DNA of 47,086 nucleotides, taken from the NCBI GenBank assembly GCA_020364185.1, contig GCA_020364185.1_4846.1. One strand, written 5' to 3'. The notes under the pieces are model-generated. The model worked only from the letters and a program-made list of their open reading frames with translations. It was not told where the DNA came from and searched no databases. This document shows positions 3,848 through 35,888 of this stretch, in pieces; position 1 is the first letter of the stretch, and the number at the start of each line of letters is the position of its first letter. A program made the position numbers and the translations under genes. The DNA comes from a phage.

Positions 3848-4299
3848 TTTTTCCAGAAGGCGTTAAGGTATATGGTGATTTAGATTACAGAAACAAAAAA
3901 TGCCCGTCAGAAGATGCTGAGCTGGAGACTTTTGTTAATCAGATAAGGAAGATATATCCTGACTTTGCAAGGGTTATGATTCATGTTCCAAATGAAGGCA
4001 AGCGCAAGGGATATGAAGTTGAAAATCTTAAGAAGAAGGGCGCGTTAAATTTCGGAGCATCAGACATTATCATTAACGGAAAGCAATCATTCGTTATGGA
4101 GATGAAGAGAATGGATCATACTTTATCAAAATGGCAGCCCGGTCAAATGGCATACCTAAAGGCGGCAAAAGAATTAGGTTCCTTCGCGTGTGTATGCCTT
4201 GGTTGGGAGGCTGCAATGATGGCATTTAACGACTGGAGAGCAATGAATTACCCAAACTATAAAAAACCATCAGAGCCATTGATATTTGATGGTTTTTAG
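3844..4299 (+). CDS. VRR-NUC domain nuclease (PD-(D/E)xK)
   Basis: ATG at 3844 overlaps helicase stop (ATGA); preceded by GGGGGG; motif GASDIIINGK...FVMEMKR fits D...E-x-K nuclease core; ends with TAG (amber) at 4297-4299. Confidence 0.7.
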   Translation: MIFPEGVKVYGDLDYRNKKCPSEDAELETFVNQIRKIYPDFARVMIHVPNEGKRKGYEVENLKKKGALNFGASDIIINGKQSFVMEMKRMDHTLSKWQPGQMAYLKAAKELGSFACVCLGWEAAMMAFNDWRAMNYPNYKKPSEPLIFDGF

Positions 4300-4419
4300 C
4301 AACAACGCCAGCAATCAGGCCAGCAACCGCAACGACAGCAGCAACAGCGATCAAAACAACAAAGCCCACAAATAGGCAATGAGCCTCCGGTTGGTTTTGA
4401 TGATTCAATACCCTTCTGA
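4300..4419 (+). other. in-frame 39-codon extension after amber stop encoding an SSB-type C-terminal tail (QQRQQSGQQPQRQQQQRSKQQSPQIGNEPPVGFDDSIPF*)
   Basis: direct translation of frame continuing from VRR-NUC TAG; no internal ATG; ends GNEPPVGFDDSIPF then TGA. Confidence 0.4.
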
Positions 4420-4430
4420 TGATAAAACTA

Positions 4431-4458
4431 ACCCCGCCGAAGCGGGGTTTTTGTTGTT
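4431..4458. terminator. bidirectional intrinsic terminator between convergent replication operon and tail module
   Basis: ACCCCGC-cgaa-GCGGGGT stem-loop followed by TTTTTGTTGTT on plus strand and a U-rich tract on minus strand. Confidence 0.65.
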
Positions 4459-4464
4459 ATAATA

Positions 4465-6609
4465 TTAATCAGCGTAAAACATCAAGAACATAATAAGCTC
4501 ATCATAGCGTATTCCGTACCTTACTCCAGCTGGTTTAACCGTTACAACTTCCTCTAACGTTTCTGGATTAATGCTTCTTTCAGAAGATTCTTCCCACTCG
4601 TCCTTGCACCAGAATGCGTAATCCTCTGGTTTAAGTCCATGCTTTGTTAGGATAGAACCAACGGTTTGCGCACCAACACCGAAGTGTGTCCGTGCAGACT
4701 CTTTTCCCTTAAGTTCTATAGCGTCAGTAAACTTATAGCGAATAATATTCTTGCGAATTTCATTGGCCGCTTCCCTTTCCGCACTCTCGTTTGTTGCCTG
4801 GGCTTTTACCTTCAGCGTTTCATCCGATGTGCTTATTGTGCCCGTGGCAGCATAGACAACAGACCATCTATTTGATGTATATCCTAATACGGTCGCATTG
4901 TCTGTATCAGGCATGAATCCATTGTATCCACTAATCTTAAGGTCGCCATTTGGGTTTCCTGATGATGTTTTACCATCATGGCTGGTCAGGGTTACTCCTT
5001 TTGTCCCGGTAGCGGTTGTTATCAAGATACCGGCGTGGGTAGCACCCAGAAGCTGAATTTCGCTATTATCGTTGCGTAAATCCTGCGCAGGTGCCTCTAG
5101 CACAGATGACGTGAATTTCCATTTCGTATCAGAAAAAAGTTCGACCGGTTGTACGCCATCCTTCTGATACATAATGGCTTTAACCCCGGAGTCCTTGCGT
5201 CTTACACCGATGGCATTTGGTTGCGACCCGGACCAGTTAGACGCGAAAGTAAACCCGTCAAATTCCACCAATGACTCATAAGGATTGCTGGTATCGTTAT
5301 TGATGGGTTCTGTAATAAAAATCCATCCCCAGTCGAAATAGTTATTATAAGTCCCTACGTTAGCATCTATCTGATACGCCCGGGTGCATACCCCCCCATA
5401 GTAACCGTAGAATCTCAGGTTCCCGGCAACTTGTGAGTCGGAGCTTACGGTTTTAACCACGCGCACACCACACGGCACATCTGCGGGACCCGTCGTTTTG
5501 GTTATATTCTCACAAGAGCCGCCAAACACCCGAAGTGAGTCCGTGCTTTCAATCCAGAACGCACAGTTTCCCGTTACGTGAACTGGGTTGTAAATAGTGA
5601 TTCTGGTATTGTTGTTGTCACCTGAAACACTCCGATTGAATCTAAACCCGCAGTCAACGTTTTCAAATACTGGATTTTTTATGGTGTGGTAATACGCGCC
5701 GCTGTTAGCCCCAGAAACTGTTGGTCCTGGTTGCAGTAACACCCCTACAGACACGTCTGTCGCTTTTGGGTTGTTAAGCTGACAAAACTGTTGCGATACA
5801 CGCGTAGTAGTTTGTGTAAGATCTTCTGGGCTTATTGCGTATGCCACTACCTCTGTGAAACCATCTGGATTTATTACCGCAGGGTTGGTTACGATACAGA
5901 AATCATGACTCATTCGTAGACATGTTATGCCAGAAGCTCCTGCTACGATTGTCGTACCAGTGAAATCAATATACCTTGTAGATGTAACATCCTGCGTATA
6001 CGAGCCATCGAACTTCATCACAAGACTTTGTGTTATGCGATATCTCGCACCTACTCTTCCTGTTAATTTACCAAACGGCACCCCTTCCAACCACGACAAT
6101 GCCGCCAGCATCGCGGAGGTATCATTAGTTACCCCGTCGCCAATGGCACCGAACTCTTCAAATGACTTTATTGTCGTAACTCGATGGGCAATCTGGTCAA
6201 TTGTTGCACCATGCTTTGTTAGATCAGTTCTAATAGACGCATCACCAACACTAACCCACGCTCCCAGACCAATGCCACCGGAAGTTTCAGGAGCTGAGCC
6301 AGATGGTACGGTTTTAGGAAACGCACCATCCCAACGGTAATATTCTCCGGTAGCTTCATAACGCAAAACCTGATTTGGTAGTGTCAGTGTCGCCCCATCT
6401 TCAAAGCTATCCATTGTTATGTAGCCATAATTACGGATAGCCTCTTCTGCGGTGTACTGAAAACCAGCAATTGTCCAGCGGCGTACACCGAATCGGTCGG
6501 TGTAGTAATGCGCGTCAGAGTTGACAACTTCGTCAATTTTCCCTGCATTAAATTTCAGGTCTCGCGGGTCTTCTGACGGAATTGGTTTATTGGTTGGTGT
6601 GGTAGACAT
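4465..6609 (-). CDS. tail fibre / tailspike with C-terminal intramolecular chaperone (peptidase S74-like) domain
   Basis: 714 aa from ATG at 6609 (AAGGAG RBS 9 nt upstream); Gly/Ser/Thr-rich beta-rich body; C-terminal region ...SNRWSVVYAATGTISTSDETLKVKAQ...IRYKFTDAIELKG... resembles autocleaving chaperone of endosialidase-type fibres. Confidence 0.7.
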   Translation of the reverse strand: MSTTPTNKPIPSEDPRDLKFNAGKIDEVVNSDAHYYTDRFGVRRWTIAGFQYTAEEAIRNYGYITMDSFEDGATLTLPNQVLRYEATGEYYRWDGAFPKTVPSGSAPETSGGIGLGAWVSVGDASIRTDLTKHGATIDQIAHRVTTIKSFEEFGAIGDGVTNDTSAMLAALSWLEGVPFGKLTGRVGARYRITQSLVMKFDGSYTQDVTSTRYIDFTGTTIVAGASGITCLRMSHDFCIVTNPAVINPDGFTEVVAYAISPEDLTQTTTRVSQQFCQLNNPKATDVSVGVLLQPGPTVSGANSGAYYHTIKNPVFENVDCGFRFNRSVSGDNNNTRITIYNPVHVTGNCAFWIESTDSLRVFGGSCENITKTTGPADVPCGVRVVKTVSSDSQVAGNLRFYGYYGGVCTRAYQIDANVGTYNNYFDWGWIFITEPINNDTSNPYESLVEFDGFTFASNWSGSQPNAIGVRRKDSGVKAIMYQKDGVQPVELFSDTKWKFTSSVLEAPAQDLRNDNSEIQLLGATHAGILITTATGTKGVTLTSHDGKTSSGNPNGDLKISGYNGFMPDTDNATVLGYTSNRWSVVYAATGTISTSDETLKVKAQATNESAEREAANEIRKNIIRYKFTDAIELKGKESARTHFGVGAQTVGSILTKHGLKPEDYAFWCKDEWEESSERSINPETLEEVVTVKPAGVRYGIRYDELIMFLMFYAD

Positions 6610-17272: not shown

Positions 17273-17764
17273 ATGATTTCAGAGCGTGATTACATAGCAA
17301 TCGCGTCAAGAGTTAAATACGACCCGATTACCGGATTGTTCACCTGGGCTGTAAGTTGCGGGAAAATATCAAAAGGTGATATTGCAAACTATCACAACGA
17401 CGCAGGATACATAACCCTTGGGAAGAAAAGATTAAGGGCGCACCGAGTGGCTTGGTTTATCCATTATGGATATGTCCCTGAGCATGAAATTGATCACATA
17501 AACAATATTCGTGATGACAATAGAATTTCAAATCTGAGGGAGGCCAGTGACTGCGAGAACGCAAGGAACACAAAGATATCTAAATCAAACACGTCTGGAT
17601 ATAAAGGAGTTCATTTTTGCAAGTGCACTGGGAAATGGAGAGCCACGGTAAAGATGCATGGGAAAACCTATCATCTTGGTAGGTTTTCAGACAAAGAAGC
17701 AGCCCATAAAGCCTATTGCAAAAAAGTAGATGAACTGTTTTTGGAGTTCGCAAACCACGGCTAA
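17273..17764 (+). CDS. HNH homing endonuclease with AP2-like DNA-binding domain
   Basis: GGAGG RBS then ATG 17273; motifs RLRAHRVAWFIHYGYVPEHEIDHINNIRDDNRISNLREAS (HNH) and SGYKGVHFCKCTGKWRATVKMHGKTYHLGRFSDKEAAHKAY (AP2-like); opposite strand to surrounding structural genes. Confidence 0.75.
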   Translation: MISERDYIAIASRVKYDPITGLFTWAVSCGKISKGDIANYHNDAGYITLGKKRLRAHRVAWFIHYGYVPEHEIDHINNIRDDNRISNLREASDCENARNTKISKSNTSGYKGVHFCKCTGKWRATVKMHGKTYHLGRFSDKEAAHKAYCKKVDELFLEFANHG

Positions 17765-18159
17765 ATCTTCATTTCTTTTTTTACCACTGAATCAACGAGG
17801 CTGCGAGTTTTATCGGCAGCCTTTGTTAAGAATCTAGGTTCAGCATTCGGCGACCAGTACGTGCTATTGCCATTGCTGCGCGGTTTACCTGCAAGTTTTC
17901 CGCTGGCGTTATGGACGTACAGTGCATATTTCGCAGAATAACCAACTTTGCCGGTGATTCGCGTCCCGTTAACTTCCACGGTATCAAACTGACTGTTAAT
18001 CAGCGTTGAAGTATCAATTGGCGTTAACGTGGCTGATTCGGTGCGGATGATGTGTGTCGCTGACTTCAGGGCGCGCACAGCTTTTGTGGCGATTATCTCA
18101 TCCACAATTTGCGAAGTTCTCTCTACGGCCTGCCTGACACCTCTTAATTTCGCTGGCAT
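17761..18159 (-). CDS. HK97 gp10-family tail component
   Basis: 132 aa; motif GKVGYSAKYALYVHNASGKLAGKP...YWSPNAEPRFLTKA matches the conserved core recalled for HK97 gp10-family proteins. Confidence 0.5.
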   Translation of the reverse strand: MPAKLRGVRQAVERTSQIVDEIIATKAVRALKSATHIIRTESATLTPIDTSTLINSQFDTVEVNGTRITGKVGYSAKYALYVHNASGKLAGKPRSNGNSTYWSPNAEPRFLTKAADKTRSLVDSVVKKEMKI

Positions 18160-18500
18160 TATGTCACCAGTGCAAAGTCAGGTGGCTCAGCGCGATTGAA
18201 CGTATTGCCGTAGTTAATCACATTCAGAATCTGGTTTGCACCAGCCGCCAGCGGGTCAGCTTCTGTCACTGTGCCAATCATGATGTAATCACCAACATTA
18301 GCGCCAGTGTACTCTGTCCAGAAGGTATTCTTCTGCACAATCTCATTACCTTTCGCATCGGTAGATACATCATCATTAAAGCCGTAATCACACATAATGC
18401 CCACTGGCGCGTCAAAAGTTGGCTTGCCGTACTTGTCAGTGCCGCCTTTGTGCCAGATGGTGCATGGTTGAGTGTAGGAGAACCGAGCCAGCGAAGTCAT
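18159..18500 (-). CDS. putative head closure / head-tail joining protein
   Basis: ATG at 18500 overlaps upstream stop (ATGA); small protein in connector gene block. Confidence 0.4.
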   Translation of the reverse strand: MTSLARFSYTQPCTIWHKGGTDKYGKPTFDAPVGIMCDYGFNDDVSTDAKGNEIVQKNTFWTEYTGANVGDYIMIGTVTEADPLAAGANQILNVINYGNTFNRAEPPDFALVT

Positions 18501-19793: not shown

Positions 19794-19823
19794 TTGACGT
19801 AGATTGATGAGGTGTTTATAGTT
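19794..19823 (+). promoter_or_regulatory. promoter (TTGACG - 17 bp - TATAGT) with embedded TTGACGTAGATT motif
   Basis: TTGACGTAGATT at 19794-19805, TATAGT about 17 bp downstream of the -35; followed by conserved GAGGTGATAAAAATG leader and ATG 19864. Confidence 0.45.
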
Positions 19824-19863
19824 AGTGGCGTAGAAACAACAATAAATGTTAGAGGTGATAAAA

Positions 19864-20127
19864 ATGGAAATGCGATGGATTGATGTAAACGACGAATTGC
19901 CAGAATCGAAAGACGACTCCGTATTGGTATGCTCTGTTGATGGAAGCAAATACGATGAGAATGGTTTCCCGGAGGGCGGCATTGATATGGTTCATATCCA
20001 AGACTATTTTGATGATATTACTGCTGGTCTTGATGAAAACGGCAATCAGCTTTATACGAAGCGTTACATCGAAATGGGGATAACACATTGGATGTATCTT
20101 CCTGAGTTGCCAGTTTCTGTGAAGTGA
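19864..20127 (+). CDS. DUF551-like small protein
   Basis: 87 aa from ATG 19864 (GAGGTGA RBS); WIDVNDELPE ... VLVC ... THWMYLPELP pattern. Confidence 0.5.
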   Translation: MEMRWIDVNDELPESKDDSVLVCSVDGSKYDENGFPEGGIDMVHIQDYFDDITAGLDENGNQLYTKRYIEMGITHWMYLPELPVSVK

Positions 20128-20149
20128 TAATAAATATTGAGGTGATGAA

Positions 20150-20410
20150 ATGTTTGATATTGATAACCCAAGTGATGACAAAGCCAAGCTGATTGATGCG
20201 GTCGCTTGCAGTTTCGCATCTTGCCAGACAGAAGGTGAATATCAGGTTGTAAAAATGTGCATTGTTGAGTTCTTCTCAGCAATCAACATTCCTGATGATG
20301 AGGCTGTTGATATTCTGCTTAGTGCCGCTGGTAATTGCGCTGAGGCGGACGAATGCATTGATGAACTCGTTGAAGAGTTTGGCGGCATTTTTCAGGGTGA
20401 TGAGGAATAA
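20150..20410 (+). CDS. highly acidic small protein (candidate DNA mimic)
   Basis: 86 aa with about 22 Asp/Glu and 3 Lys; ATG 20150 preceded by GAGGTGATG. Confidence 0.5.
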   Translation: MFDIDNPSDDKAKLIDAVACSFASCQTEGEYQVVKMCIVEFFSAINIPDDEAVDILLSAAGNCAEADECIDELVEEFGGIFQGDEE

Positions 20411-20413
20411 ACA

Positions 20414-21223
20414 ATGAAAACACTAAGCAAAATCTATTCAGACAAAGAAACGCGCAACGGCATCGCTGTGAACAAAACCTATCTCGTGCCAGTTGAACAA
20501 ATCTATCTTGAGCCTGGATACAACATCCGTGAAGCAGATGAGCAGCACGTTGAATATTTCGCGCAGTGCTGGGAATCAGGTCAGCCATTGCCAGCGCTAA
20601 CAGTTATTCCTGATGAGAAAGGAATCCGCATTCTTGATGGTCAGCATCGTTATCTCGGTGCATTGCGTGCCATTGAGCGTGGAGCGCCAATCGTTCGCAT
20701 TGAGTGTAAGGACTTCACTGGCGATGAGGCTGACAAAATTGCTTTCATGGTGTCATCTAGCCAGGGTAAGCAGCTTGACCCGTTTGAACGTGCAAAGGCA
20801 TATACCAGACTGAAAGGCTTTGGCTGGACTAACGAAGAAATCGCCAAGAAGGTAGGCCGCTCAGTATCCGATGTGCAGATGCACCTGTCATTGGGTGATG
20901 TGCCAGCGGAAGTTAAAGCGCGAATCAATGCCGGGCAAATCAGTTATGCAAATGCCGTTGCGGTAACGCGTGAGCATGGCGATGATGCGGTTAAAGTTAT
21001 CGACGAGGCAGTGGAAGAAGCCAAAGCGCAAGGCAAAGATAAAGTCACGGCAAAAGTGCTTAAGTCGAAAAAGGTTAAGCCGGTTGACCGTCTTATTGAG
21101 TTACTCAAACTAGCAGACCATGTGATTCTTCCCGCTGGTCATGTAGTGGCAGAGGATGAGGAATTTATTCAGATTCCTGTTGCTGATATTCACGAGGTTA
21201 TGGCAATTCTGGAGAAGATGTGA
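20414..21223 (+). CDS. ParB-like nuclease domain protein with HTH
   Basis: 269 aa; ParB N-terminal domain signature IRILDGQHRYLGALRA and a central helix-turn-helix-like segment (TNEEIAKKVGRSVSDVQMHL). Confidence 0.7.
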   Translation: MKTLSKIYSDKETRNGIAVNKTYLVPVEQIYLEPGYNIREADEQHVEYFAQCWESGQPLPALTVIPDEKGIRILDGQHRYLGALRAIERGAPIVRIECKDFTGDEADKIAFMVSSSQGKQLDPFERAKAYTRLKGFGWTNEEIAKKVGRSVSDVQMHLSLGDVPAEVKARINAGQISYANAVAVTREHGDDAVKVIDEAVEEAKAQGKDKVTAKVLKSKKVKPVDRLIELLKLADHVILPAGHVVAEDEEFIQIPVADIHEVMAILEKM

Positions 21224-21426
21224 TGAATGAGCGTGATGACAAGTTAATTGCAGGATGGGGCGACCCACTACTGTCTAAGAAGGTTCACTATTTCCGCGAC
21301 GGGAAAATTATCAGTGAATGTGGTAAGTGGATGTTTGGCGGAGGAAGAGAAGATATATCAGCATGGAAGCCTGATGCAATATGCAAACAATGCCTAAGGA
21401 AATTTGAGAAGATGGAGAAGATTTGA
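21220..21426 (+). CDS. hypothetical protein (possible Cys-rich Zn-binding)
   Basis: 68 aa; ATGA overlap with ParB-like gene; Cys spacing ...ECGKW...CKQC. Confidence 0.4.
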   Translation: MMNERDDKLIAGWGDPLLSKKVHYFRDGKIISECGKWMFGGGREDISAWKPDAICKQCLRKFEKMEKI

Positions 21427-21599
21427 TGACGCCAGAACAATTCATCGAAAAACACCTCCGCGTAAAGCTGCCTGACATAGACCAGATGGCAATTGATGCG
21501 GCAATCCAGTATTACAAGCGCAATCAGAGCGCAAAGAAGGGTGGCATTTTTGAAGAATGCCTTAAGGTTGCAAAACAGCACATGATTAAGGTGAAGTGA
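21426..21599 (+). CDS. hypothetical protein (57 aa), translationally coupled
   Basis: hand-translated MTPEQFIEKHLRVKLPDIDQMAIDAAIQYYKRNQSAKKGGIFEECLKVAKQHMIKVK; start codon shares a base with the upstream stop (TGATG at 21424-21428) and its stop TGATG-overlaps the downstream ATG (21597-21601). Confidence 0.3.
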   Translation: MTPEQFIEKHLRVKLPDIDQMAIDAAIQYYKRNQSAKKGGIFEECLKVAKQHMIKVK

Positions 21600-22138
21600 T
21601 GAAACTAAAAATCAGCAAATTATTACTTGAATCAGCATTAATATTTCAGGCGCGCAATGATGTGCGTTACTACCTGAATGGTATCTGCTTCATGCCTGAT
21701 GGCCGCATTGCCTCAACTGACGGTCATCGCGCATTTATTGGTGGCAGCCATGACAACGAGATTGCTGAAAATATAATTGTAAAGGTAAGCAAGTCTCCGA
21801 CAAAGAAATATAACCATGCGATCATCGATACAAAATCTGGAATCGTTACTTATCATTTCGGTCATATAGACACAATGGTTGGTGCTGGTATCTGCGAAGA
21901 GATTGACGGAAGATTCCCTGATATTGATCGCGTGATACCAAAGGAAACGAAAGCAGCAGAGGAAATTGGCTTCAATGCTGGCTATCTGGTTGATATTGAG
22001 AAAGTGGCGAAGCTGTTTAATCCTAAGTTCTGTGGAGTAAAATTTGAACTGAATGGGAACACAAATGCTGCAGTTTGCTGTCTTAGTGCGCCATCTGGCG
22101 AGGCTGCGAAGATTGTTGTTATGCCGATGCGTCTGTAG
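21599..22138 (+). CDS. truncated DNA polymerase III beta sliding-clamp (DnaN) homologue lacking domain I and the middle of domain III
   Basis: 179 aa; colinear matches to E. coli DnaN C-terminal two thirds: NDVRYYLNGICF, STDGHRAF, IDGRFPDIDRVIPK, KFCGVKF and terminal IVVMPMRL (host protein ends YVVMPMRL, from memory). Confidence 0.65.
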   Translation: MKLKISKLLLESALIFQARNDVRYYLNGICFMPDGRIASTDGHRAFIGGSHDNEIAENIIVKVSKSPTKKYNHAIIDTKSGIVTYHFGHIDTMVGAGICEEIDGRFPDIDRVIPKETKAAEEIGFNAGYLVDIEKVAKLFNPKFCGVKFELNGNTNAAVCCLSAPSGEAAKIVVMPMRL

Positions 22139-22143
22139 CAATA

Positions 22144-22172
22144 AAAAGCCCCTTCACGGGGCTTTGTTTTTA
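22144..22172. terminator. bidirectional intrinsic terminator
   Basis: AAGCCCC-ttcac-GGGGCTT stem-loop followed by TGTTTTTAT; between plus operon end (22138) and minus gene end (22173). Confidence 0.65.
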
Positions 22173-26974: not shown

Positions 26975-27222
26975 TTTTTCACCTTTAAGTTGTGTTTTGT
27001 TAATTCATCAATGACATCATTTTGATCGCACAGCAGCAAATGCATATTGCTTAGGTCAACCTCAATTGCTGCACGGGATGCCTGCCACGCCATCCATGCG
27101 AGATTTGTTTGATGGCATTTGTACTGCTGGTCATCCCATTCAGTCATTGGATATTCCGTGCGCCATAAATCAAATCCTGTTTCTTCCTTAATCCACTTTT
27201 CAAACTGCTCTCTACTCGTCAT
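26971..27222 (-). CDS. hypothetical protein
   Basis: 83-aa ORF, overlapping stop/start coupling. Confidence 0.4.
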   Translation of the reverse strand: MTSREQFEKWIKEETGFDLWRTEYPMTEWDDQQYKCHQTNLAWMAWQASRAAIEVDLSNMHLLLCDQNDVIDELTKHNLKVKK

Positions 27223-27445
27223 CTTCTAAATCCTCATCATCTCCTTCTAAATTTACAGTCCATCCATACTCGTCACACCACATGCAAGTATAATGAATGT
27301 AAGGCCATCCTCCGCTGCTAACCCACTCGTGGTCACACTCAACTTCCTCCACTATCCAGCCCATCTTTCTACGGTTATTGGCAATAAACTCATCCGATGT
27401 TTCAAACAGAGTTCTGCCGGATTTGTGCTTAATAGCCCATCTCAT
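27212..27445 (-). CDS. hypothetical protein with acidic C-terminus
   Basis: 77-aa ORF ending ...EGDDEDLEDDE. Confidence 0.4.
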   Translation of the reverse strand: MRWAIKHKSGRTLFETSDEFIANNRRKMGWIVEEVECDHEWVSSGGWPYIHYTCMWCDEYGWTVNLEGDDEDLEDDE

Positions 27446-28059: not shown

Positions 28060-28570
28060 AATCGCGCTCCGCTGCTGCCTGATTGAAGTCGTCGGCGGTG
28101 TAGAGGTGTCCGTGATTCTGAAATTCACCTTGTATTTTGTTTCTGTATTCTATCAATGCATTAATTGCTTGTTCTTTTGTTTTAAAGTAACCAAGCGTCT
28201 TTCTCATACAGTCTGCACGCCATTTCATTCGCTTTTGTACAAACCTTACTCCTTTTGCTCCTGATTTATTTGAGGATGGCTGTGGCTTATTCCATTCATT
28301 TTGACTTCTTGTTGCCTTTCTCAGATTGCAAATTCTGTTGTCATCCTTTACACCGTTAATGTGATCTATTTCATGTTCAGGCCATTCACCGTAAACATAA
28401 AACCATGCCAATCTATGAGCCAATCTCTTTTTTCCTAGCAGCCTTATGTGTATATATCCACTGGATGTTTTTGTTCCGCATGCATTACCGTTCTTTCTCC
28501 TAAACTCACCTGTGTCCGTATTATAGTGAATTAACTGTAATACAGTATCGTGATTAAGATCGCATTTCAT
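28049..28570 (-). CDS. HNH homing endonuclease with AP2-like DNA-binding domain (paralogue of 17273-17764)
   Basis: KKRLAHRLAWFYVYGEWPEHEIDHINGVKDDNRICNLRKATRSQNEWN (HNH) and SGAKGVRFVQKRMKWRADCMRKTLGYFKTKEQA (AP2-like). Confidence 0.75.
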   Translation of the reverse strand: MKCDLNHDTVLQLIHYNTDTGEFRRKNGNACGTKTSSGYIHIRLLGKKRLAHRLAWFYVYGEWPEHEIDHINGVKDDNRICNLRKATRSQNEWNKPQPSSNKSGAKGVRFVQKRMKWRADCMRKTLGYFKTKEQAINALIEYRNKIQGEFQNHGHLYTADDFNQAAAERDYGL

Positions 28571-28806
28571 TAGTATTCACCCTCAAAATCACTATCTTTA
28601 TAAGTAAACCCCCCTCTTGTATTCCATGACTTCACCGCCGAATCTGCGTGAAGCCACTCATCAGTACCGCACCCGCACTGCGAACAAGCAACGTAATAGC
28701 CATGAATATTTTTGTCATTGTAAGCATCGTTGCAGCCACAGAATGGGCACTCCAGCAATCCTTCATCATTCATCATCGGCATATGTGGCGCTGTCATTTT
28801 AACCAT
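28570..28806 (-). CDS. Lar-family restriction alleviation-like protein
   Basis: 78 aa; LECPFCGC...HGYYVACSQCGCGTDEW...AVKSWNTRGG resembles the Zn-ribbon pattern recalled for Lar-type restriction alleviation proteins. Confidence 0.55.
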   Translation of the reverse strand: MVKMTAPHMPMMNDEGLLECPFCGCNDAYNDKNIHGYYVACSQCGCGTDEWLHADSAVKSWNTRGGFTYKDSDFEGEY

Positions 28807-35660: not shown

Positions 35661-35888
35661 TTAATCTTCATCGTCGTCATCGTCGTCATCATAGTCGCAT
35701 CGTTCCATCAGCGGATTCATGCGAGTTGATACCGACCTTGCATATCCATTGCGGCATAAATTATGTAACACGCCGTAAATTTCAAACATTTCAGTTCTTT
35801 CATCTCCCACATCAAGATTACAAGCCAATGCGTGGCACTCTGCTGCGAGAGACGATATTTTTTGCATCAGTTCAATTTTATTCATCAC
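35661..35888 (-). CDS. small protein with poly-Asp C-terminal tail
   Basis: 75 aa ending DYDDDDDDDED. Confidence 0.4.
   Translation of the reverse strand: MMNKIELMQKISSLAAECHALACNLDVGDERTEMFEIYGVLHNLCRNGYARSVSTRMNPLMERCDYDDDDDDDED

Follow-up and report, generated by a model that had tools for sequence, protein, structure and literature searches.

The stretch of DNA analysed here (the window: 47,086 nt; GenBank assembly GCA_020364185.1, contig GCA_020364185.1_4846.1) belongs to a Skatevirus-like siphophage, and the region considered below is about 90% identical to that of Skatevirus-, Buchananvirus- and Cedarrivervirus-type siphophages of Salmonella, E. coli, Shigella and Klebsiella. In this region a 2.3-kb operon on the plus strand is lodged between the minus-strand tail and head modules, and displays the following order: a promoter, a gene with a DUF551 domain, a gene coding for a highly acidic protein of 86 aa, a gene coding for a ParB/KorB-like protein, two small genes coding for proteins of 68 and 58 aa, a gene coding for a beta-clamp (DnaN)-like protein, and a hairpin (Table 1). 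Thus, the gene order of the window agrees with the earlier note, which had described the acidic gene as the second in an operon that also encodes the ParB-like and DnaN-like proteins. The promoter, TTGACG-17-TATAGT, is predicted to drive the operon; it is kept in the related phages Sa179lw and Sf11, and its TATAG core is still recognisable in the more divergent VLCpiS13f. The genes are tightly packed: the ParB-like gene starts 3 nt past the stop codon of the acidic gene, both in the window and in the Skatevirus seszw, and the stop and start codons of the 68-aa and 58-aa genes overlap.

Table 1. The operon and its elements, with positions counted from the first letter of the window
Feature	Position	Strand	Evidence
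Sigma-70-like promoter TTGACG-17-TATAGT	19794..19822	+	Consensus scan, 10/12 matches
DUF551 accessory gene	19846..20127	+	Pfam DUF551, E 3.9e-8
Ribosome-binding site GAGGTG of the acidic gene	20140..20146	+	Sequence; junction alignment
Gene for the 86-aa acidic protein (PHROG 14587 family)	20150..20410	+	ORF, composition, PHROG match, AlphaFold2 model, purifying selection
ParB/KorB-like DNA-binding protein gene	20414..21223	+	Pfam HTH_ParB, E 1.5e-11; KorB, E 1.2e-6; PHROG 1033, E 3e-90
Two small genes (68 aa and 58 aa)	21220..21599	+	ORFs; PHROGs 2358 and 4439, function unknown
180-aa beta-clamp (DnaN)-like gene, last of the operon	21596..22138	+	TIGR00663 dnaN, E 7e-9, below the curated cut-off
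Bidirectional terminator-like GC-rich hairpin closing the operon	22145..22165	.	Terminator scan, both strands

The last gene of the operon deserves a comment of its own. Its 180-aa product carries the name “RusA-like Holliday junction resolvase” in PHROG 3007 as well as in RefSeq, and apart from that label the only similarity we recovered for it is to the beta clamp of DNA polymerase III, including weak matches to the Pfam DNA_pol3_beta models for clamp domains 2 and 3 in addition to the dnaN match. It may therefore be a half-size clamp-like protein, and the RusA-like label is possibly wrong.

The acidic gene begins with an ATG preceded, 5 nt upstream, by a GAGGTG Shine–Dalgarno sequence; no earlier start is available to it, because an in-frame stop codon lies at 20138–20140. 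Its product had been singled out for an extreme negative charge, and the composition confirms this: 11 Asp and 11 Glu (22 acidic residues) stand against 3 Lys, with no Arg and no His, giving a net charge of -19 and a computed pI of about 4.05. Of the 135 ORFs with 60 aa or more, counted over the six frames of the window, it is the most acidic, with a charge per residue of -0.22 versus -0.16 in the next most acidic ORF. Random 86-mers drawn from the phage’s own amino-acid composition reach a net charge of -19 or below with a frequency of 7.5e-5, and a scan of 86-aa windows across the long ORFs found none below -16; the acidity of the protein thus exceeds chance expectation. The charge is also lopsided, with residues 1–43 contributing a net -5 and residues 44–86 a net -14. 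At the nucleotide level, the window copy and that of phage Bas77 differ by no non-synonymous change at a pS of 0.17, and dN/dS is 0.02 relative to Sa179lw and 0.07 relative to a 72%-identical copy from a Klebsiella phage. By these comparisons the gene is real and under strong purifying selection.

Two further small acidic ORFs are encoded on the minus strand of the window. One (35661–35885) codes for a 74-aa protein of net charge -11 that ends in DDDDDDDED (PHROG 4220, function unknown), for which a single-sequence AlphaFold2 model yields a helical hairpin with a pLDDT of 72; the other (27212–27445) codes for a 77-aa protein of net charge -12 ending in DDEDLEDDE, with weak matches to PHROGs of unknown function.

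Sequence searches place the 86-aa protein in a single, narrowly defined family. It matches the PHROG 14587 profile with an E-value of 1.2e-46, residues 1–82 aligning with positions 1–82 of the 82 in the profile, and an identical protein is present in many deposited phages, including those of Salmonella and E. coli. An HMM search of 1.84 billion cluster representatives recovered 33 relatives, nearly all of 68–90 aa. In an alignment of 30 diverse members, which share 23–98% identity with the window protein, every sequence is acidic (net charge -7 to -20, mean -12), and A17, C25, E40, A44, E51, G61, D67 and D71 are invariant or nearly so; of the acidic positions among these, D67 is invariant, and E40, E51 and D71 are nearly invariant. 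Searches of Pfam, NCBIfam, PADLOC models and PDB sequences, with the single sequence or a profile of the 30, returned no match to the protein; a Pfam LRV_FeS hit at E 0.12 was set aside as noise. We also considered metal or Fe–S binding by the five cysteines and rejected it, as only C25 and C20 are conserved, C37 shifts its position, and C63 and C69 are not conserved.

The family is encoded in disparate genomic contexts. Virulent Skatevirus-like phages make up most of the carriers in the phage collection. A second set of homologues comes from lambdoid phages and prophages, such as HK446, ECP1 and Kapi1, and as a prophage gene the family occurs in 58 of 5426 complete E. coli genomes (about 1%), where PGAP names the product “hypothetical protein”. 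The lambdoid homologues of HK446 and ECP1 lie in the N–cIII interval, where lambda has ral, and the same two small genes, annotated as cIII and kil in HK446, are found directly downstream in 28/28 lambdoid IMG/VR loci. Other prophage homologues adjoin RecT, YqaJ or Erf modules; in one such case a DUF551 gene lies two genes upstream, and one homologue opens a leftward operon and lies immediately upstream of RecT. Beyond these, a Jedunavirus homologue follows the primase gene, an Autographiviridae homologue is an ORF without annotation that lies some 2.2 kb in from the left genome end, an Aeromonas phage carries a further copy, and some homologues reside in small opposite-strand cassettes inside tail modules. 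Clustering of the neighbours in 40 IMG/VR loci found no neighbour common to the siphophage and lambdoid contexts.

An AlphaFold2 model based on a 16-sequence alignment predicts a compact four-helix bundle (pLDDT 83.9, pTM 0.72), with amphipathic helices spanning residues 7–23, 28–44, 49–59 and 64–76, followed by a disordered acidic tail (83–86). In helix 4 (A64–E76), the sequence and DSSP assignment together show hydrophobic positions 66, 69, 70, 73, 74 and 77 alternating with acidic positions 65, 67, 68, 71, 72, 75 and 76. A Foldseek search of the PDB with this model gave no match with E < 0.5. The equivalent fold search of BFVD recovered the protein itself and one 74-aa protein of the related phage SeSz-2, and no known DNA mimic or anti-defence protein was among the fold matches listed. 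The idea that the SeSz-2 match corresponds to the 74-aa poly-Asp protein of the window was dropped, since hhalign showed no sequence relationship.

Comparison with related phages reveals that the acidic gene occupies a slot of exchangeable content at the head of the operon. The blastn alignments break sharply at about 19860 and 20406, with the ParB-like gene serving as the conserved downstream anchor, and the flanks of the slot are 91–94% identical in Sa179lw, Sf11 and Bas77–81, and 73–79% identical in the more distant VLCpiS13f. Its contents fall into the following configurations: the DUF551 and acidic genes in the window; the acidic gene alone in seszw; the acidic gene with one or two small genes in Sa179lw, Bas77 and VLCpiS13f; and unrelated genes coding for 111–207 aa in Sf11 and Bas78–81. 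In Sa179lw, Bas77, seszw and VLCpiS13f the acidic gene comes first behind the promoter. This placement, first or second behind a promoter and in a slot whose content is swapped, is typical of host-takeover and counter-defence genes.

In an alignment that covered the window and three relatives, the sequence AATAAATRTT(A)GAGGTGATRAA(A)ATG, a junction some 24 nt long, marks the borders of the slot. The junction carries the ribosome-binding site and may be a recombination site. As it is repeated before both the DUF551 and the acidic genes, the DUF551 gene looks to have been inserted ahead of the acidic gene, an arrangement peculiar to this phage among the Skatevirus-group slots compared. The same alignment bears on gene starts: the true start of the DUF551 gene is likely the ATG at 19864, 6 nt after GAGGTG, and the annotated or longest-ORF starts of the first gene in the slot (beginning MLEV(I/M)KM, in Sf11 as well) are probably wrong. 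We had considered the MLEV(M/I)KM shared by the DUF551 ORF of the window and Sf11 gp32 as a recombination point inside the coding sequence; this was rejected because the alignment shows it to be an in-frame reading of the leader and ribosome-binding site, which are conserved.

On the other side of the ParB-like gene, Bas77–80 and VLCpiS13f carry a gene for a DNA methyltransferase (17676–18473 in Bas77; 3909–4625 in VLCpiS13f), and at this position small genes without known function stand in the window and in Sa179lw; in the window these are the 68-aa and 58-aa genes. The pairing of ParB and methyltransferase genes recalls the anti-defence leading regions of conjugative plasmids.

A genome-reduction experiment on seszw offers a view of the acidic gene under selection. 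By CiPGr, a CRISPR-based reduction procedure, 53 of the 81 genes of this phage were found to be removable, and 69 mutants were sequenced (PMC9825161). We found the acidic gene at full length and at least 99% nucleotide identity in 70 seszw-lineage records, and the ParB gene in an equal number; the carriers include genomes reduced to 36.5 kb, and all reduced mutants in the collection keep the acidic gene. In three late mutants (250S, 280L and 210S) the gene has changed: C19G (P7A) is present in all three and C142T (P48S) in one of them. Each substitution hits the first C of a CCN, which on the opposite strand corresponds to the G critical for the NGG PAM of SpCas9; GG/CC dinucleotides hold 14% of the positions of the gene, and two hits would land there by chance with a probability of about 0.02. 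This suggests that the phage escaped Cas9 by mutating the PAM instead of losing the gene, from which it would follow that the gene is worth keeping on the Salmonella host of seszw. Thus, it appears to matter for growth on Salmonella Typhimurium, although its retention could also stem from poor targeting or from polar effects on ParB.

Databases already attach a function to this family. PHROG 14587 is labelled “anti-restriction protein”, a label repeated in RefSeq phage records and Pharokka-style annotations, and the GenBank record of ECP1 calls its homologue “antirestriction protein ral”, the sole “ral” label that we found. Profile comparisons lend this no support: hhalign of the family against lambda Ral (NC_001416) gave a probability of 0.1%, against Ocr and Gam 0.2% each, and against all four of Ral, Ocr, Arn and Gam at most 0.3%, while a Pfam scan at E <= 1 returned no match to Ocr (PF08684), ArdA (PF07275), ArdB/KlcA (PF03230) or Antirestrict models. 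The negative profile comparisons make it most likely that the label was assigned by position and then propagated, and the “ral” of ECP1 may likewise be positional. Our search of the literature found no published test of the PHROG 14587 family as such.

Published plating data nonetheless speak to the matter, since the BASEL phage Bas77 (ClaudiaMuster, PQ850598) encodes the identical 86-aa protein and its relatives Bas78–81 carry other genes in the slot. In the raw data (S1 Data), which concern the gene in its native phage context, the plating efficiency of Bas77 was 0.04–0.1 on EcoKI (10- to 25-fold restriction) and about 1e-3 on EcoCFT_I and, on the type II and III systems, 1e-5 to 5e-5 on EcoRI, 1e-7 to 2e-6 on EcoRV, 1e-6 to 7.5e-6 on EcoCFT_II and 1e-5 to 5e-5 on EcoPI, and Bas78–80, which lack the acidic gene, are indistinguishable from it on these six systems (PMC11990801). 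Going by the available portion of the same source, Bas77 apparently has only 1 recognition site for EcoKI and 2 for EcoCFT_I. [quoted passage not shown] On RexAB, PifA and Fun/Z, Bas77 and Bas78–80 alike plate at about 1, and their sensitivity to Old varies without tracking the acidic gene (PMC11990801). The lambdoid branch of the family is represented by the HK446 homologue (AFH20664.1), which was included as UDP0194 in a library of 200 accessory genes (bioRxiv 10.1101/2023.04.06.535777, Supplementary File 3); it goes unnamed in the text of the study and is not among the confirmed counter-defence, cell-death or pull-down genes of that screen, which recovered Ocr, Ral and ArdA (Silas et al., bioRxiv 10.1101/2023.04.06.535777). 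In E. coli K-12 assays, classical restriction–modification (R-M) enzymes are thus effectively excluded as targets, and the “anti-restriction” label appears both to lack support from homology and to be at odds with published phenotypes. As a separate observation, the window encodes a Lar-like restriction alleviation protein on its minus strand (28570–28806; Pfam PF14354, E 6.8e-12, above the curated cut-off), and Bas77, which also has a gene annotated as Lar-like, is restricted by EcoKI all the same.

The best reading of the 86-aa protein, which we favour tentatively and with somewhat less than even confidence, is that of an acidic protein that inhibits, or serves as a decoy for, a protein binding DNA or RNA. 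Under this proposal, the protein would be made early from a host-type promoter and would bind its target through a conserved acidic surface formed mainly by helices 3 and 4 and the tail, so as to block stoichiometrically a basic protein, encoded by the host or by a competing element, that would probably be one that binds nucleic acids. It would act as a charge decoy, possibly through DNA mimicry, and its target would be something other than a classical type I, II or III R-M enzyme. What the family conserves is a compact, helical scaffold with a negative surface; stoichiometric binding to a basic target offers the most economical mechanism. The earlier note had proposed a DNA mimic that inhibits restriction enzymes or other DNA-binding defence proteins. 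The conserved acidity, the promoter and the slot keep it plausible that the protein belongs to a class of small, acidic, early accessory inhibitors; restriction enzymes as the target class are contradicted for the tested systems, on which Bas77 is restricted just like Bas78–80.

A bolder version of the decoy proposal, unlikely in so specific a form, is that the family represents a new fold class among phage counter-defence proteins, a four-helix acidic decoy directed against a widespread enterobacterial DNA-targeting system outside classical R-M. Candidate targets would be systems such as BREX, Dnd/Ssp phosphorothioate restriction, type IV restriction, Gabija, Wadjet/MukBEF-like SMC complexes and RecBCD-linked systems. 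It would explain both why the gene was never lost from seszw, propagated on a clinical Salmonella isolate, and its horizontal movement between at least five phage lineages.

The alternative that survives best, which we regard as less likely but as a serious rival, is that the protein modulates a host protein through protein–protein contacts, without mimicking a nucleic acid; a protease, a division protein, an RNA polymerase subunit or a nucleoid protein could be such a partner. In its favour, all 28 lambdoid loci have the gene directly upstream of those annotated in HK446 as cIII and kil, which are modulators of host physiology. Further, the conservation of individual residues (E40, E51, G61, D67 and D71) goes beyond bulk charge, the small globular bundle is unlike the elongated known mimics, and retention in the reduced seszw genomes suggests a basic role in propagation as opposed to a strain-specific defence conflict. 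However, no one host pathway can be linked to the protein, unrelated genes freely replace it in the slot, which speaks against a core role in physiology shared by the Skatevirus group, and the conserved negative charge most simply points to a basic, nucleic-acid-binding target.

The proximity of the ParB-like gene raises the prospect that the ParB-like protein, or some other protein made from the operon, has in the acidic protein a dedicated partner, chaperone or antagonist. The 3-nt gap in the window and seszw and the keeping of both genes in the same 70 seszw-lineage records are consistent with this, and an acidic protein could conceivably occupy the DNA-binding face of a ParB/KorB-type protein. 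However, ParB genes of about 91% identity accompany unrelated slot genes in Sf11 and Bas78–81, other small genes intervene in Sa179lw, Bas77 and VLCpiS13f, and no ParB gene is found near the lambdoid, prophage, Jedunavirus and Autographiviridae loci inspected. Being confined to one phage group, and to a slot that is exchangeable even there, such a partnership is very unlikely.

We give similarly little credence to the possibility that this is a moron-type gene, which would protect the infected cell or lysogen against other phages by superinfection exclusion or defence. Such a role would fit those homologues that, like classical morons, sit in small opposite-strand cassettes of tail modules, and the presence of the gene in prophages of about 1% of complete E. 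coli genomes. It fits poorly with the predominance of virulent Skatevirus-like carriers in the phage collection and with the nature of the product, a soluble 9-kDa acidic protein devoid of enzymatic or membrane features and hence an unlikely defence effector; nor was the homologue reported as protective in the accessory-gene screen, where Imm and Cor were detected.

[quoted passage not shown]

These results have a corrective and a constructive side. The “anti-restriction” label appears to be without basis and is contradicted for type I–III R-M by the plating data; it matters that carriers of the gene include phages proposed for biocontrol. The notion of a DNA mimic coincides with an existing database label, and the sequence itself has already been deposited many times. 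On the constructive side, gene retention and PAM escape in seszw provide a modest positive lead. If the protein inhibits another defence system or a host DNA-handling system, it would found a structurally new family of acidic phage inhibitors; for comparison, of the 268 anti-defence proteins in the EVADES catalogue, 11 are DNA mimics. Bas77 with its natural gene-swap relatives Bas78–81, and the seszw mutant collection, are ready tools for pursuing this.

Among known systems, the obvious point of reference is T7 Ocr (gp0.3), a DNA-mimic inhibitor of type I R-M and BREX. Like Ocr, the 86-aa protein is small, predicted to be all-helical, very acidic and furnished with an acidic C-terminal tail, and it would probably be expressed early; the two are comparable in size and in charge per residue. 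[quoted passage not shown] Known DNA mimics of the Ocr/ArdA type are elongated dimers with surface carboxylates that follow the phosphate backbone of B-DNA, whereas the four-helix model is small and globular. Lambda Ral shares with the lambdoid homologues, though not with the window gene, a place in the N–cIII interval of the pL operon; Ral is a Cys-rich protein of 66 aa that is not notably acidic, and on present comparisons the resemblance is positional only. Another parallel is offered by two DNA mimics that inhibit RecBCD, T7 gp5.9 and lambda Gam, as small early proteins, early timing being predicted for the acidic protein: the homologue upstream of RecT occupies the place of gam in lambda, and HK446 has its homologue together with Abc2, an anti-RecBCD protein. 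Inhibition of RecBCD has been tied to P2 Old sensitivity, which among Bas77–80 varies independently of the acidic gene. JSS1_004, an anti-Dnd protein of a Salmonella phage, was considered as a relative and rejected, being an unrelated T7 gp0.7-like kinase. A physical analogy to the proposed decoy comes from the colicin DNase immunity proteins Im7 and Im9. These are helical, acidic, four-helix proteins of about 86 aa that block a nuclease; they are stoichiometric inhibitors of a basic DNA-binding enzyme, and they have the same size, helicity and acidity as the protein described here.
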